Source: Vicinamibacterales bacterium
GTDB taxonomy: Bacteria; Acidobacteriota; Vicinamibacteria; Vicinamibacterales; JAMQPK01
DNA: 64,000 bases
Reading direction: 5' to 3'
NCBI GenBank assembly: GCA_963825295.1
Contig: CAWGSZ010000009.1
Coordinates: 1,718,329 to 1,782,328 of the forward strand
In this document: in pieces, positions 30,232 through 56,768 of the stretch
Position numbering within the stretch: the stretch's first letter is position 1
How the letters are laid out: each line of letters begins with the position of its first letter
Notes under the pieces: generated by a model
Told to the model about the DNA's origin: nothing
Databases searched by the model: none
Seen by the model: only the letters and a program-made list of their open reading frames with translations
Made by a program: the position numbers and the translations under genes

Positions 30232-31638
30232 ATGGGTCGCATTCTCATAGCTGATGATCACGATGCCCTCCGGCGCGGGCTCGCCCGGGCGCTGACGGCT
30301 GCCAATCACGAAGTCGAAGAAGCTCCCAACGGCAACCAGGCCATCGAGCGGCTTCACGACGGGCATTTCGACGTCGTACTGAGCGATCTGAAGATGGGCG
30401 GCAGCGACGGGCTCGACGTGCTCCGCACGACCAAGACGCTCCATCCCTCGACCGCCGTCATCCTGATGACCGCCTTCGGATCGGTGCACACGGCGGTGGA
30501 AGCGATGAAGAGCGGCGCCTTCGACTACGTGCAGAAGCCCTTCGAGATCGAAGAAATGGAAGTGAAGATCGAGAAGGCGCTCGAGATGCGGCGCATGCGC
30601 CACGAGCTCGACTACCTGCGGCATACCCAGAACGACATCTACGATTTCGACCGCATCGTCGGCCAGAGCGATCCCCTCAAGCGCGTGCTCGGCGTCGTGA
30701 AGAAGGTGGCCAAGAGCAACACGACCGTGCTGATTCGCGGCGAGACGGGAACCGGCAAGGAGCTCATCGCCGGCGCCATCCATCACAACTCGCTGCGTGC
30801 GTCGCGGAACTTCGTCAAGGTGAACTGCGCGGCACTTCCCGAGACGCTGCTCGAATCGGAGTTGTTCGGACACGAGAAGGGGGCATTCACGGGCGCCGAT
30901 CGCCAGCGCATCGGCCGCTTCGAGCAGGCCGACGGCGGCAGCCTCTTCCTCGACGAAGTCGGCGACATGAGCGCCGCGATTCAGGCGAAGATCCTGCGTG
31001 TCTTGCAGGAGCACGAGTTCGAACGCCTCGGCGGCACGCGCACGCAGAAGGTGGACGTGCGGCTCGTCGCGGCGACCAACCGCGATCTATCCGTGATGGT
31101 GGCGTCCGGAGCGTTCCGCGAAGACCTGTACTACCGGCTGAACGTCGTCTCGGTGGAGATGCCGCCGCTGCGCGAGCGCAAGGAAGACATCATCCCGCTC
31201 GCGATGTTCTTCGTGAAGAAGTTCGCCGGCGAGCTGAAGAAGAAGATCGACGGAATCGACCCGGAAGCGCAGAAGATGCTGCTGCGCTACAACTGGCCCG
31301 GCAACATCCGCGAGCTCGAGAACTCGGTGGAGCGGGCGATTCTGATGACCGAAGGGCAGTTCATCACGTCGGAGGATCTGCGCCTGGGCGAAGCGGCGAC
31401 CGCCGGTGTGACCAGCACGCGCGAGGCTTCGGCGCTCGTGAAGATTCCGCCGTCGGGCGTGCCGCTCGAGGAAATCGAGCGGAGCGCGCTGATGGAAGCC
31501 TTGAAGATGTCGAACTGGGTGCAGAAGGACGCCGCGGAGCTGCTCGGCATCAGCCCGCGCGTGATGAACTACAAGATCAAGACGCTCGGCATCGAGTTCC
31601 CGCGGGGACGGCGGCCGATGGTCGCCGCGGCGAGTTAG
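30232..31638 (+). CDS. sigma54-dependent response regulator (NtrC family)
   Basis: Receiver domain, [23 protein letters not shown]-terminal Fis HTH. Confidence 0.95.
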
Positions 31639-37916: not shown

Positions 37917-38810
37917 TTAGCACGGCCGCCGAAATCGTACGAATCGGCCGCCCTCCACGCGACCGATCGCACCCGCGAGCTCCAGCTCGAGCAGCCGCGG
38001 CAGCAGCTTCACACGATCGACGCCCGAGCGTTCTGCGATCTCGTCGAGATCGCAGGCGTCGCCCTCCTCCATCGAACGGAGAACCGGATCGTGAGACGCA
38101 AGATTAGGCGTGGGGGGTTCTTTTCCACGACTAATCCCCAATCCCAAATCCCCAATCCCTGGAGAGATCTCTTCCAAGATATCGTCCACACACTCGACGA
38201 GCTTTGCACCATCGCGCAGCAGGGCGTGCGCCCCGCAGTTCCGCCCGCCGAGCACATTGCCCGGAACTGCAAGCACGGCGCGCCCCTGCTCGAGCGCGAA
38301 GTCGGCGGTGATGAGCGAACCGCTGCCCTCTGCCGCCTCCACGACCACCACCGCCAGCGAGAGCCCGCTGATGATCCGATTCCGCTGCGGAAAGTTTGAT
38401 TTCAAAGGAGGTGTGCCCGGATCGAACTCGCTGACGAGCGCCCCGCAGGTGACGATGCGCGCGGCGAGCGCGCGATGTTCGGGCGGGTAGATGACGTCGA
38501 CGCCGCAACCGAACACCGCAACGGTCGCGCCCCCACCGTCGAGCGCGCCACGGTGCGCGGCGGAATCGACGCCGCGCGCCATGCCGCTGACGACGATCAC
38601 CCCGCGGCGTGCGAGATCGGCACCAAGCCTGTACGCCACTTCGAGGGCGTACGGCGACGCGCGGCGCGAGCCGACGATGGCCACCGACGGCACGCGGAGG
38701 ACGTCGACACCCCCTCTGACCCAGAGCGACGATGGCGGATCGTGAATGGCGGCCAGGGCGGTGGGATAACGGAGATCGCCTGTAGATATTGCACAAATCT
38801 TGGCGCTCAC
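37917..38810 (-). CDS. dprA: DNA-processing protein DprA
   Basis: [39 protein letters not shown]. Confidence 0.95.
38131..38160 (+). repeat. AATCCCN array in frame in the dprA linker
   Basis: Encodes [10 protein letters not shown]. Confidence 0.88.
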
Positions 38811-40768: not shown

Positions 40769-40890
40769 GAAAGGTGAAAGTAAAAAGGTGAAAGTAAAAA
40801 GTTGAAGGTAGAAAGTCTTCACTTCTTACTTTTGACTTTTCACTTTTCACTTTTGACTTTTCACTTTTTACTTTTCACTTTCACTTTCAC
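40769..40890. repeat. Gene-less inverted heptamer hairpin (GAAAGT(A/G) arm 40769-40816; (C/T)ACTTTT arm 40820-40890)
   Basis: AT-rich arrays read directly between rpmA and obgE. Confidence 0.9.
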
Positions 40891-41982: not shown

Positions 41983-42627
41983 ATGCCGGCCACGTCACCG
42001 CGAATAGGTATTCTCGGCGGGACATTCGATCCGATCCATCTGGGCCACCTCGAGGCCGCCTCGGCCGCCAGGCGCGAGCTGTCGCTCGATCGGATTCTGA
42101 TCCTGCCCGCGCGCACGCCGCCCCATCGCAGCATCGAGCCGCGCGCGTCCGTGTTTCACCGGTTCGCGATGGCGGCACTCGCCGCGGCCGAACGCGATAT
42201 GATCGTGTCGGATCTGGAGCTCCAGCGCGAGGGACCGTCCTTTACGGCGCTCACGCTCGAGGCACTCCACCGCGATGGATATGCGCCGTCACATTTGTAT
42301 TTCATTACGGGCAGCGATGCGTTCGCCGAAGTGAATACCTGGTACGACTATCCACGCATCCTCGGTCTCGCGAACTTCGTGGTCGTGTCGCGTCCGGGCG
42401 CTCCACGCCCGGCCGACCTAATCCCTAATCCCCAATCCCCAGTCCCTGATCCGATACGGCCGACCGTCTTATCGGTGGAGGCCGATACGCCGAACGTGTC
42501 ATCCACCGAGATTCGACGCCGTGTCGGCGCCGGCGAGCCGATTGAAAGTCTCGTGCCGTCGAGCGTGGCCGGCCACATCCGCCGGAATCGCTTGTACGTG
42601 CCGGCACCAGTCGCGGCGGTGTTGTGA
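41983..42627 (+). CDS. nadD: Nicotinate-nucleotide adenylyltransferase
   Basis: GGTFDPIHLGH, FITGSDAF, VSSTEIR. Confidence 0.95.
   Translation: MPATSPRIGILGGTFDPIHLGHLEAASAARRELSLDRILILPARTPPHRSIEPRASVFHRFAMAALAAAERDMIVSDLELQREGPSFTALTLEALHRDGYAPSHLYFITGSDAFAEVNTWYDYPRILGLANFVVVSRPGAPRPADLIPNPQSPVPDPIRPTVLSVEADTPNVSSTEIRRRVGAGEPIESLVPSSVAGHIRRNRLYVPAPVAAVL
42417..42452 (+). repeat. AATCCCN array in frame in nadD
   Basis: Encodes LIPNPQSPVPDP. Confidence 0.88.
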
Positions 42628-43031
42628 CCCCAGCTCGCAAACGTTCATCGAAAAAATTCCCCGCCCAGGTACAGCGGGCCATCGAGGCCGCACAGGATCG
42701 CAAGGCCGTCGACGTCGTGGTACTCGACCTCCGTCCGGCCAACGGGTTCACGGACTACTTCGTGATCATGACCGGCGCCAACACCCGGCAGATTCAGGCC
42801 ATCTCGGACGCCATCCAGGATGCGCTCGGCTCGACCGGCGTGAAGCCGGCGCATGTGGAGGGCGGCGATCGCGCCGGGTGGATCCTGCTCGACTACTTCG
42901 ATTTCATCGTGCATATCTTCAGCCCCGACTCGCGCGCGTTTTACGCATTGGAGCGACTGTGGGGATCTGCCGAACGCATCGACGTGGCTGAACCGAAACC
43001 TCAACGACAGGGACTTGGGATTAGGGATTAG
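42624..43031 (+). CDS. rsfS: Ribosome silencing factor
   Basis: DRKAVDVVVLD, DYFVIMTG, WILLDYFDFIVHIF..R.FYALERLW. Confidence 0.95.
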   Translation: MTPARKRSSKKFPAQVQRAIEAAQDRKAVDVVVLDLRPANGFTDYFVIMTGANTRQIQAISDAIQDALGSTGVKPAHVEGGDRAGWILLDYFDFIVHIFSPDSRAFYALERLWGSAERIDVAEPKPQRQGLGIRD

Positions 43032-43032
43032 G
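43010..43032 (+). repeat. GGGATTA array (left arm of cassette 1); supplies the rsfS C-terminus and stop
   Basis: gggacttgggattagggattagg. Confidence 0.9.
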
Positions 43033-43104
43033 CTGCCGCAGATTTTGAGACAAACATGACGCCAAAGTGCGGCATTTTTTGCTCATGTCCCCCAAACCTC
43101 CACA

Positions 43105-43139
43105 CAAATCCCTGATTCAGTAGTGGGCATGCGCCTTGC
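43105..43139 (+). promoter_or_regulatory. IHF site plus sigma54 -24/-12 motif
   Basis: Reverse complement of 43105-43117 is AATCAGGGATTTG, matching WATCARNNNNTTR. GGGCATGCGCCTTGC at 43125-43139. Confidence 0.7.
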
Positions 43140-43152
43140 CTTCAAAGGCCGC

Positions 43153-43539
43153 ATGACACATATCAATTCGTTCAAAGATCTTGTCGTCTGGCAAGCGAGC
43201 ATGGACCTGGTGGATGTTTGCTTCGACATCGTTGAGGCGATCCAACATCCCTATCGATTCGTTCTTGCTGACCAACTCCTGCCTTCTGGAATTTCGATTC
43301 CTTCCAACATTGCCGAAGGCAGTCGCCGACCAACGAAGGCATACCTCAACCATCTGTCGATTTCGCTCGGCTCGCATGCTGAGGTGGAAACACTGTTCGA
43401 GGTCATCCATCGACGAAGGCTTGTGCCGGAACCGTTGTTGGCAAGGGGCGTGGGAGTCGCGGACCCCGTCGGAAAAATGCTGCACGGCCTTGCTGAATCG
43501 CTGGAATTGCGTCTTGCAAATGAGCGCACGGAGGCGTGA
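43153..43539 (+). CDS. Four-helix-bundle protein (23S rRNA IVP / Avd-like)
   Basis: SFKDLVVWQ, L.DQL..SGISIPSNIAEG, LSISLGSHAEVET. Confidence 0.9.
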   Translation: MTHINSFKDLVVWQASMDLVDVCFDIVEAIQHPYRFVLADQLLPSGISIPSNIAEGSRRPTKAYLNHLSISLGSHAEVETLFEVIHRRRLVPEPLLARGVGVADPVGKMLHGLAESLELRLANERTEA

Positions 43540-44385
43540 CACGCCTGACTGTTCTAATCCCTAATCCCCACTCCCTAATCACTGACGCCACCAGGGTCAC
43601 GGGAAACAGTCTGGTAGCGGCGTTGCTGGCGCCAGCCTGCGCCGTGTGTGACACGGTCCTCGACGAACCCTTGTCCGGCTGCGTGTGCCGAACCTGCTGG
43701 GCAGCTATCAGGCCGATCACTCCGCCGGTGTGCGACGCGTGCGGCGACCCGCTCGCGCGCCGGGCCCAGTCACCACTCACCAGTCTCCGAACACCTGATG
43801 ACACCGAATCCCTAATCCCTAGCCCCCATCCCCAGTCCCTCTGCGCGTTGTGTGGGAGGCATCGCTCCACCATCACTCGCGCACGGGCCGTCGGCGAGTA
43901 CCGAGGGCGCGCTCAGAGACATCATCCACGCGCTGAAGTACGGTGGTCGCCGGTCGCTGGCACGTCCCCTTGCCGCCCTGATGCGCGATCGAGGGGCCGA
44001 ACTTCTCACCGGGGCCGATTGTGTGGTGCCGGTCCCGCTTCACTGGAGGCGGGAATACTCACGCGGCTTCAATCAGGCCCGGGAGCTGTGCCGGCATCTT
44101 GGCTTGCCGGTGGTCGAGGCCTTGCTTCGCGCACGGCACACACGAGCGCAGGTCGAGCTGGTCGCCGATCGCCGCCGGGCAAACGTCGCAGGCGCGTTCC
44201 GCCTGCGTCGCGGTCTGCTGTCCAGGCCGCGCATCTCGGAAACGAAGGTGTTGCTCATCGACGATGTGAGCACGACCGGCGCGACGTTGGAATCCTGTGC
44301 CCGGGTGCTGAAGGAGTCGGGGGCCGCCGAGGTCTTAGCGCTCACGACCGCACGCGTCGTCACGCGCGGCCGCGCCGCCGGGTAG
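43536..44385 (+). CDS. comF: ComF family protein; frameshift near 43900
   Basis: Double zinc ribbon (CAVC, CRTC, CDAC, CALC), VPVPLH..RGFNQ, LLIDDVSTTGATL. Confidence 0.9.
43554..43580 (+). repeat. TAATCCC array (right arm of cassette 1)
   Basis: ctaatccctaatccccactccctaatc, inverted relative to 43010-43032. Confidence 0.9.
43807..43840 (+). repeat. Degenerate AATCCCT array in frame in the comF zinc ribbon
   Basis: Encodes SLIPSPHPQSL between CDAC and CALC. Confidence 0.85.
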
Positions 44386-50045: not shown

Positions 50046-50611
50046 CGTCGCAGCCGGATACGCCGGGACGAGGGGGTGTCGGCGTGAAGAAGCCTGCGCA
50101 TCCTGGCGAGGGCCTGCCGCCGTTCCGTGTCTTCTTCCGATGCGCAGCAATCGGACGGCACGACGACACGATAGTCGCGCATGTGCGCGTCGGCAGCGGT
50201 AAAGAACACGCAGTTGTCGGCCGCGAAGCCCGCGATAACGACCGTGCGCACATCGCCGGCCAGCAGGAGCGTATCGAGCGGTGTTTCGTGAAATCCGGAG
50301 AGGTGGGGCTTCAACACGAAGAAATCGCGCGGCGTCGGCGCAAGAAGCCTCGCGATCGGCGCGCCGGCCCGTCCCGCCTGGCTGCAATCGGCGACGATCG
50401 CCTTGAAATCAGACCGCCAGCGGCCCCAGTTGTCGTTCACGTAGATGACGGGCACGCCTGCAGCGTGAGCACGATCGCGCAATCGCGCGATGTTGGCCGC
50501 GGGACGGAGTGAGCGGCGCGCCAGCACGCCGCCCGCCGGGAAATCGAACAGATTGATGACGTCGACGAGCAGCACGGCCGTCCTGGCGGACGGAAAGACG
50601 GATCTCGCCAT
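50042..50611 (-). CDS. Isochorismatase-family cysteine hydrolase
   Basis: TAVLLVDVIN, VLKPHLSGF, AGFAADNCVFFTAADA. Confidence 0.9.
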   Translation of the reverse strand: MARSVFPSARTAVLLVDVINLFDFPAGGVLARRSLRPAANIARLRDRAHAAGVPVIYVNDNWGRWRSDFKAIVADCSQAGRAGAPIARLLAPTPRDFFVLKPHLSGFHETPLDTLLLAGDVRTVVIAGFAADNCVFFTAADAHMRDYRVVVPSDCCASEEDTERRQALARMRRLLHADTPSSRRIRLRR

Positions 50612-50639
50612 GCCCCCGTCAGGAGCAAACGAAATGCCG

Positions 50640-56256: not shown

Positions 56257-56289
56257 TCGTCCATCGTCGATCGTCCATCGTCGATCGTC
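56257..56289 (+). repeat. TCGTC(C/G)A array, about 5 units (downstream arm of cassette 2)
   Basis: tcgtccatcgtcgatcgtccatcgtcgatcgtc. Confidence 0.92.
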
Positions 56290-56302: not shown

Positions 56303-56683
56303 TTAGTGACGATCTTTCCAGTCGGTGCGCTGTAGATAGTTGATCCAGTTCGTTAACATTCGCCCGATGTGATCGTAGCTGTCGACGTAGCGCGAGTATT
56401 CCGTCCTGGAGATGAGTGATTTCTGGTAGGCGTCTTCGAGATGCCCGATCGTTTCTTGCACAGAGCCTCTGGCTCGACCGAGGTAGACGGCCAGATGTCT
56501 ATCGGTCAGTTGTCCGTAACCTTCGGCCACAAGCGGCGCAACGCGGCTTGTTGAGCGGGACAACTGATCTTTCAGAGTGAAATTTCTGCCAAACACAGGG
56601 CGCTCCAACAGCTCGGAAACTTCACCAGCCATCTTCAGCGCCTTCTTGTAGACCTTGATTTCAGAAAGGCTTCTCGCTCGCAT
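56303..56683 (-). CDS. Four-helix-bundle protein (23S rRNA IVP / Avd-like)
   Basis: LSEIKVYKKA, FTLKDQLSRS...VAEGYG, YLGRARGS.QE, ML..WINYL. Confidence 0.88.
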   Translation of the reverse strand: MRARSLSEIKVYKKALKMAGEVSELLERPVFGRNFTLKDQLSRSTSRVAPLVAEGYGQLTDRHLAVYLGRARGSVQETIGHLEDAYQKSLISRTEYSRYVDSYDHIGRMLTNWINYLQRTDWKDRH

Positions 56684-56696
56684 GCGAGACAGCAAG

Positions 56697-56711: not shown

Positions 56712-56724
56712 CCACCTCACACCC

Positions 56725-56768
56725 GGACGATGGACGATCGACGATCGACGATCGACGATCGACGATGG
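56725..56768 (+). repeat. T(G/C)GACGA x6 array (upstream arm of cassette 2)
   Basis: Units are exact reverse complements of those at 56257-56289. Confidence 0.92.

Follow-up and report, generated by a model that had tools for sequence, protein, structure and literature searches.

A conserved -24/-12-type element close to the start codons of PF05635 genes in a Vicinamibacterales genome, most likely a sigma-54 promoter with a near-leaderless message

How would a gene be expressed if its promoter-like element ended only 13 nucleotides (nt) before the start codon? This question is raised by two genes for small four-helix-bundle proteins, copy 1 and copy 2, in a stretch of 64,000 nt from a Vicinamibacterales bacterium (the whole stretch is referred to here as the window; its source genome, assembly G000, has 6.14 Mb and 64% G+C). 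The original prediction for this DNA was that each gene, carried in a cassette, is preceded by a sigma-54 motif of the -24/-12 type and transcribed into a message with almost no leader. Our analyses pointed to a real and conserved element that is probably a sigma-54 promoter and would give rise to a near-leaderless message.

The element and its distance from the start codon

The elements, spacers and genes in the window are as follows:

43125-43139, + strand: -24/-12-type element of copy 1, GGGCATGCGCCTTGC, in which GG, A, GC and TTGC are invariant in 11 genus orthologue regions
43140-43152, + strand: spacer of copy 1, 13 nt, with the predicted transcription start at the G at 43151
43153-43539, + strand: copy 1, four-helix-bundle gene of family PF05635, 128 amino acids, starting at 43153 and not with the longer open reading frame (ORF) call from 43123
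56711-56697, - strand: -24/-12-type element of copy 2, TGGCGCGGATTGTGC, in which GGC and TGC are invariant among genus relatives
56696-56684, - strand: spacer of copy 2, 13 nt, with the predicted transcription start at the G at 56685
56303-56683, - strand: copy 2, four-helix-bundle gene of family PF05635, 126 amino acids, starting at 56683

As had been predicted, a GG-N10-GC motif stands exactly 13 nt ahead of the ATG at both 43153 (+) and 56683 (-), and there is no clear Shine-Dalgarno (SD) sequence: the spacer of copy 1 contains only AAGG and that of copy 2 nothing, with GGAG, GAGG and AGGA absent from both. The choice of these two positions as the true starts was also supported, since they fit the N-termini of the family and since an 8-nt insertion in the spacer of one copy-1 orthologue species puts the upstream in-frame ATG and GTG, on which the longer ORF calls depend, out of frame. 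Both proteins are full-length members of PF05635, a four-helix-bundle family whose Pfam name is "23S rRNA intervening sequence protein". Copy 1 scored 72.9 bits and copy 2 scored 62 bits (cut-off 33.8), and the matches covered positions 1-105 and 2-105, respectively, of the 106 in the profile. The nearest public relatives of copy 1, at 79% identity, are from metagenome-assembled genomes (MAGs) labelled Vicinamibacterales.

The quality of the motif was scored as the number of matches to the 11 specified positions of TGGCAC-N5-TTGCW, and the sites of copy 1 and copy 2 each match 8 of 11. Counted on both strands, the whole genome has 108,378 GG-N10-GC sites, approximately 0.009 per position (12.3 million positions), and 6,408 of them score 8 or more. 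As judged from these counts, motif quality by itself is no better than chance, and what appears to go beyond chance is the fixed distance from the start codon across paralogues and orthologues.

The source genome has 11 PF05635 matches, eight of them above the cut-off, and one of those eight is a 5'-truncated fragment. Starts were assigned to these paralogues as the in-frame ATG or GTG nearest to a point about six residues before profile position 1. The expectation that the motif would be found upstream of all paralogues was borne out in part: GG-N10-GC stands at 13-14 nt in five of the seven full-length genes above the cut-off; in the other two the last base differs, giving GG-N10-GT (13 nt) and GG-N10-GA (15 nt). 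Among the three weak matches in the genome, one has the motif at 15 nt. We also compiled a mixed family set of 36 loci with a start, made up of 10 from this genome and 26 from 20 related genomes (one further locus has no start). The strict motif was found at 12, 13, 14 and 15 nt in 3, 9, 3 and 1 of these loci, respectively (16 of 36), and a relaxed motif was found at 12-15 nt in 24 of 36. The other spacings from 0 to 59 nt had between zero and two loci each, approximately 0.2-0.3 on average per spacing.

The copy-2 subfamily was even more uniform. Twenty-five genus genomes yielded 29 loci, 27 of which have a start codon homologous to residue 1 (ATG in 24 and GTG in 3). All 27 have GG-N10-GC at 12 nt (6 loci), 13 nt (19 loci) or 14 nt (2 loci), and in the two loci lacking the homologous start codon the motif was located by eye at 15-16 nt. 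The consensus for the subfamily is yGGCAyGc..tgTGCC. The 19 loci at spacing 13 all have GGC and TGC; the base after GGC is A in 17, the second base beyond that is G in 15, and the flanks vary. The spacer is free with the exception of G at -2 (20 of 27, vs 25% genome-wide) and C at -1 (24 of 27, vs 39% genome-wide). Several of the genus genomes have three to four copy-2-type loci each, at different places.

Copy 1 gave a similar picture. When the DNA from the upstream rsfS gene to copy 1 was aligned for 11 species, the only invariant parts were GG.A.GC...TTGC and the region of the ATG, and the spacer was not conserved in the 11 orthologue regions except for the GC ahead of the ATG. Invariance amid diverged flanks argues for selection on the motif. 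Taken over the family loci, this is a -24/-12-type element that is linked to the family, is conserved, and keeps a distance of 12-14 nt from the start codon.

Two other family members in the genome are of unusual extent. The first, at G000:C2:684815-685042 (L002), has no 5' end and matches the profile from position 22; its break adjoins a CTATCAG heptamer array, and its orthologue in G004 (L030) is complete. The second, at G000:C7:143062 (L006), has an open frame that extends to 354 amino acids with a low-complexity PTN-rich tail, and this long frame may reflect a lost stop, a frameshift or an assembly error.

A candidate sigma-54 promoter abutting the start codon

The names -24 and -12 place the transcription start approximately 12 nt after the C of the GC. 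For both genes the most likely start is the G at -2 relative to the ATG (43151 and 56685), which would leave a leader of 2 nt, 5'-GCAUG. As genes of the 13-nt class have no room for an SD, we infer a leader of 0-3 nt: transcription would begin at the start codon or 1-3 nt before it, and the message would be translated as a leaderless or near-leaderless mRNA.

Loci in which the motif is further from the start codon are informative in this regard. In the sister subfamily MQDF (L031-L034) the motif is approximately 43 nt upstream of the ATG and there is a clear GGAG in the leader, and the MQDF promoter is probably a leadered version of the same promoter type. In addition, many GGCAY-N5-TTGCW sites in the genomes of the order that have an ATG 23-26 nt downstream have an SD (GGAGG) just past the predicted start, which points to a second class of putative sigma-54 promoters with minimal leaders of approximately 11-14 nt. 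Both of these fit a start about 12 nt after the GC, and they show that an SD is used where room exists. Across the genome an SD-like 4-mer was found for 443 of 1,894 genes, and the table published in PMC10783764 gives SD use in Vicinamibacteria as 41%.

The close abutment of motif and start codon was found to extend beyond the PF05635 genes. The genome contains 51 GGCAY-N5-TTGCW sites, and an ATG is located 12-15 nt downstream in 17 of them (at exactly 13 nt in 9) and a GTG in 5; by comparison, the same 51 sites have an ATG at 22-25 nt in three cases and at 32-35 nt in one. When the ATG was required to open an ORF of at least 90 amino acids, sites scoring at least 10 gave 6, 6 and 4 cases at 13, 14 and 15 nt, respectively, vs approximately 0.6 elsewhere. 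Similarly, the 1,894 ORFs with tightly bounded starts had 60 motif matches within 45 nt, 18 of which were at 12-15 nt. About a third to two fifths of the genome's best sigma-54-like sites abut a start codon. These counts changed our view of the promoter as something linked to the cassette: the motif is linked to the gene family, but its arrangement is not peculiar to the cassette and is one case of a genome-wide class.

Pfam domains were identified in 13 of the 20 top class members that were scanned. The class includes two molybdopterin oxidoreductases, two subtilases, BamA, a class A penicillin-binding protein, an M48 peptidase and an isochorismatase, as well as an enhancer-binding protein and a pilin-like protein that carries a methylation motif at its N-terminus. 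In several members the domain begins only 6-11 residues after the proposed start, which fixes that start. Together, the members would form a plausible sigma-54 regulon. The window itself has a third site of this kind:

50624-50639, - strand: sigma-54-like site, CGGCATTTCGTTTGCT, 13 nt ahead of the ATG at 50611 (-) of an isochorismatase-family gene

The isochorismatase Pfam domain begins at residue 11 from this proposed ATG.

Counts across lineages were less clear-cut. The pattern GGCAY-N5-TTGCW with an ATG at 13-16 nt was found 16 times in G000, and a further 40 genomes from its order gave 88 matches. The control at a spacing of 23-26 nt gave 84 matches (a hand count), but many of these carry an SD and the control is not neutral. 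In 41 genomes from the order to which a Thiobacillus MAG belongs, the same pattern had 130 matches; these do not peak at 13, and many resemble coding sequence. The backward control used for these pattern counts ignores codon structure, and the tally includes two matches from genome G091 on which no claim is based. The cross-lineage counts support no claim that the start-abutting habit is unique to the lineage.

The genome has the components that a sigma-54 promoter requires. There is one rpoN gene, with a full DNA-binding domain (219 bits), and the sigma-54 interaction domain PF00158 has 43 matches, approximately 30 of them full-length (activator genes). The invariant GGC, 8 nt and TGC of the element are the signature of sigma-54. 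No sigma-70-like promoter was found around copy 1, and neither promoter region had a match in Rfam at E values up to 1. Sigma-54 (RpoN) would be expected to bind the GG-N10-GC ahead of each PF05635 gene, and expression would stay off until a putative ATP-dependent enhancer-binding protein remodels the closed complex, a requirement for an activator that follows from the known behavior of sigma-54.

An enhancer-binding-protein gene is located in the window at about 30655-31155 (+), approximately 12 kb from copy 1, and another, at G000:C2:716332-716832, is convergent to the paralogue at C2:717718. The TTGC was also considered as a -35 hexamer or as an extended -10 and was rejected, as no -10 hexamer follows it in the spacer of copy 1 or copy 2.

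Several observations weigh against a sigma-54 promoter with a near-leaderless message. Sites of the GG-N10-GC type that score at least 8 are common, with 59 in the 64-kb window or approximately one per kb. The genus loci of the copy-2 subfamily are kin, so the count of 27 of 27 makes independent events seem more numerous than they are. In the subfamily with the best scores (L013, L014, L015, L016, L019 and L020) the GGCAC is replaced by AGCAC or AGCAT with the N5-TTGC unchanged; five of these AG-type loci have a spacer of 13 nt and L020 has one of 17 nt, and three sister loci retain GG. A common upstream activator 8-mer was not apparent among eight paralogues of this genome, the best 8-mer occurring in 7 of 8 and those of shuffled sequences in 6-8. 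The motif was also uncommon when family loci from many phyla were considered: only 5 of 79 evaluable loci had the strict motif at 12-16 nt, comprising two from Vicinamibacterales, one from another acidobacterium and two G-rich low-complexity matches, and one further acidobacterial locus had a relaxed match. Beyond Vicinamibacterales and the two other Acidobacteriota loci, PF05635 loci lack the motif. The candidate promoter is therefore a feature of the lineage and not a hallmark of PF05635, and it does not travel with the family. A 2-nt leader would, in addition, imply leaderless-type translation in this organism. Lastly, the RNA evidence consists of short assembled contigs (from runs with 6-9% of sampled words), which are blind to 5' ends. 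Some of these contigs are identical to the window (e.g., 42744-42894 and 43573-43750), with thin cover over copy 1, and the organism or a near strain is present in rhizosphere RNA libraries.

Heptamer arrays, relics and alternative readings

Copy 1 has rsfS on one side and, on the other, a comF-like gene that encodes a double zinc ribbon, and copy 2 is downstream of a cupin gene. The candidate promoter belongs to the cassette, with the upstream heptamer array on one side of it and the gene on the other. The repeats around the two copies, together with the other features upstream of copy 1 (one of which had been taken for a site of integration host factor, IHF), are as follows:

43012-43032, + strand: GGGATTA-type tandem heptamers upstream of copy 1, with longer arrays at the same place in genus relatives
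43032-43081, + strand: hairpin and T6 after the rsfS stop, with arms that pair in the minimum-energy fold
43090-43117, + strand: degenerate AATCCC-type units, which include the supposed IHF site
43555-43583, + strand: TAATCCC-type heptamer array just past the stop of copy 1
56724-56765, - strand: array of GATCGTC heptamers immediately ahead of the candidate promoter of copy 2
56257-56284, - strand: GACGATC-type array beyond the copy 2 stop, reverse complementary to the array upstream of the gene

Two regulatory elements that the original prediction had placed upstream of copy 1 did not withstand scrutiny. The proposed consensus IHF site at 43105-43117 has one mismatch to WATCAANNNNTTR (AATCAGGGATTTG, minus strand), a match at chance frequency, as the window has 10 matches to the IHF consensus with at most one mismatch vs 8.85 expected. 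The site coincides with the last unit of the degenerate AATCCC heptamer array, and its ATCA part is retained in 4 of 11 copy-1 orthologue regions, as determined by eye. The genome has three genes of the HU/IHF family. The second element, a set of candidate enhancer repeats (gccgca...tgcggc), proved to be the arms of a hairpin that, with the T run behind it, comes right after the rsfS stop, and from its form this looks like an intrinsic terminator. Its fold is not unusually stable (z = -1.18), and a simple terminator scan of the + strand did not list it. Relatives have different GC-rich hairpins at the position downstream of rsfS, as seen by eye.

The heptamer arrays were found to be a widespread companion of the family. 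Of 80 PF05635 loci from many phyla (L042-L121), 41 have at least three tandem heptamers within approximately 165 nt of the gene; the arrays are upstream in 28, downstream in 31 and on both flanks in 18. Control windows 630-800 nt away had arrays in only 1 of 78 and 4 of 75 cases. The effect is specific to period 7, as repeats with periods of 5, 6, 8 and 9 were found at 6, 4, 4 and 1 of the 80 loci, respectively. The heptamer itself differs from locus to locus, and 9-10 of the 18 loci with arrays on both flanks have inverted copies.

Period-7 arrays are also abundant in the source genome as a whole, with 349 arrays of at least four copies, vs 31-62 for each of the periods 5, 6, 8 and 9. Only 10 of these 349 are within 300 nt of a PF05635 gene, which indicates that the arrays are a general intergenic feature in which such genes are embedded. 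The arrays of the genome can be grouped into a small number of heptamer families that recur, and many stand close together as inverted pairs without an intervening gene. Other examples in the window are at 40826-40881, 42416-42443 and 38131-38158. RNA contigs of runs X1 and X4 diverge from the window at 56257 (X1) and 56760 (X4), the inner edges of the copy 2 arrays. These are likely assembly breaks at repeats, and it is possible that they represent the same cassette in another context.

Genus relatives provided a view of what happens when the gene is absent. A PF05635 match is present between rsfS and comF in 14 of the 24 genus genomes with an rsfS locus. Twelve of these matches reach 100 bits or more, and the other two are a weakened match and a fragment. 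Among the 10 genomes without a match, G029 (L125) and G027 (L127) were seen by eye to retain the gene's first codons together with the promoter-like motif, and in a third, G011 (L128), the motif and the stop region of the gene remain. In all three the relic runs directly into a heptamer array and then comF, again as judged by eye, and in G012 (L126) the inverted arrays alone remain downstream of rsfS. A promoter upstream of comF in relatives lacking the cassette had been named as an observation that would count against the prediction, and formally such a motif is present in three genus genomes. However, the first codons or stop that remain with it identify these as relics of a lost ORF and not as an ancestral comF promoter. 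The positions of the relics suggest that the ORF may have been lost by deletion at the arrays.

These observations led us to a broader conjecture, which is tentative and goes well beyond what we consider probable. PF05635 genes may be the cargo of a widespread cassette bounded by inverted heptamers, an intergenic counterpart of the 23S rRNA intervening sequence, with arrays that travel and decay with the gene. The protein would act on the arrays or their stem, for example in maintenance, spread or RNA processing. In Vicinamibacterales the cassette would have acquired its own activator-gated, near-leaderless sigma-54 promoter as part of a lineage-wide sigma-54 leaderless regulon.

The same arrays also figure in a different account of expression, which we regard as unlikely. 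Sigma-54 holoenzyme might bind the element while the mRNA is made elsewhere, by read-through from rsfS or the cupin gene, perhaps with excision at a stem formed by the inverted arrays, such that the closed complex would be a brake or a sensor. The array and its reverse complement on either side of copy 2 and the inverted arrays at 9-10 of the 18 two-flank loci from many phyla would suit such a process, as would the naming of PF05635 for ORFs in 23S rRNA intervening sequences that are excised by RNase III, as described in PMC4990558. In contrast, a coupling of promoter and start predicts both that the element keeps strictly within 12-14 nt of the start codon and that spacings peak at 13 nt genome-wide, and a roadblock needs neither. 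The terminator-like hairpin between rsfS and copy 1 also speaks against read-through, as do the sister genes, in which an SD lies between the start codon and a motif 43 nt upstream.

We give little credence to the idea that the element is read by something other than sigma-54. Under this idea it would be the target of another sigma or transcription factor, would serve the cassette in recombination, or would be a signal in the RNA that allows translation without an SD. In its favor are the AG in place of GG in six loci, the GTGCC in place of TTGCW in the -12 part of the copy-2 subfamily, and the fact that the link to RpoN is drawn here from sequence. However, the invariant GGC, 8 nt and TGC are exactly the sigma-54 signature, neither promoter region has an Rfam match and copy 1 has no sigma-70-like hexamers, and the motif also abuts pilin-like, molybdopterin oxidoreductase and activator genes, which are classes commonly under sigma-54 control. 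The last reading, that GG-N10-GC is frequent in a genome of 64% G+C (at approximately 0.009 per position, with 59 window sites equal or better in score) and that the two copies have the same spacing by coincidence, has a negligible probability and was ruled out by the family-wide spacing counts (27 of 27 and 16-24 of 36 loci, vs approximately 0.2-0.3 per other spacing) and by the alignments, in which the motif positions are invariant within diverged intergenic DNA.

Relation to known systems and significance

A sigma-54 promoter with a near-leaderless message would have clear affinities with described systems. The canonical proteobacterial -24/-12 consensus is YTGGCACGrNNNTTGCW. Similarities with canonical sigma-54 promoters include the GG and GC 10 nt apart, the conserved GGCAyG and TGC, and the presence of rpoN and many activator genes in the genome. 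The differences are that the GC here is 12-14 nt before the start codon with essentially no 5' untranslated region (predicted), whereas textbook sigma-54 promoters have leaders of tens of nt with an SD, that no shared upstream activator 8-mer was found among eight paralogues, and that the -12 part is often GTGC and not TTGC.

Known leaderless genes have been described with sigma-70-type -10 boxes. Leaderless mRNAs are common in Actinobacteria and Deinococcus and have also been seen in Leptospira and Sinorhizobium (PMC3616915 and PMC5243855). The genes described here are like them in having the start codon at or next to the predicted 5' end, no SD, and ATG (24 of 27) or GTG (3 of 27) as the start codon at the copy-2 loci. 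The available portions of PMC12316311, PMC3616915 and PMC5243855 do not describe a systematic sigma-54-driven leaderless class.

The cassette also has relatives. The intervening sequences of 23S rRNA that carry an S23p ORF (PMC4990558) have a gene of the same family, PF05635, and a small ORF bracketed by inverted repeats. They differ from the loci studied here, in which the gene is located between protein-coding genes and has tandem heptamer arrays and its own promoter-like element. G-rich heptamer repeats have been reported as GGGAATC in Xanthomonas and GGGGAYT in Nostoc, and their function was called unknown (PMC4692102). Those repeats are similar to the 349 arrays of this genome in that they are intergenic tandem heptamers of variable length, often in convergent inverted pairs. 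The searched passages of PMC4692102 contain no mention of PF05635 genes.

Sigma-54 promoters stand for tightly gated transcription, and leaderless mRNAs form a topic of their own. The two would meet in a genome whose best sigma-54 sites lie against start codons in a third or more of cases. If the reading is correct, a promoter of approximately 30 bp and an ORF, with no ribosome-binding site, would make up a compact, self-contained unit of expression. For annotation, the start codons of the PF05635 gene family would be corrected, and the members of the class are predicted to depend on an activator, in a soil phylum that has received little study. The bracketing of PF05635 genes by heptamers across phyla may matter more. 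The repeats have been puzzling in cyanobacteria and Xanthomonas and the four-helix-bundle proteins, which are very common, have had no known function, and their association makes a link between repeat and protein directly testable.

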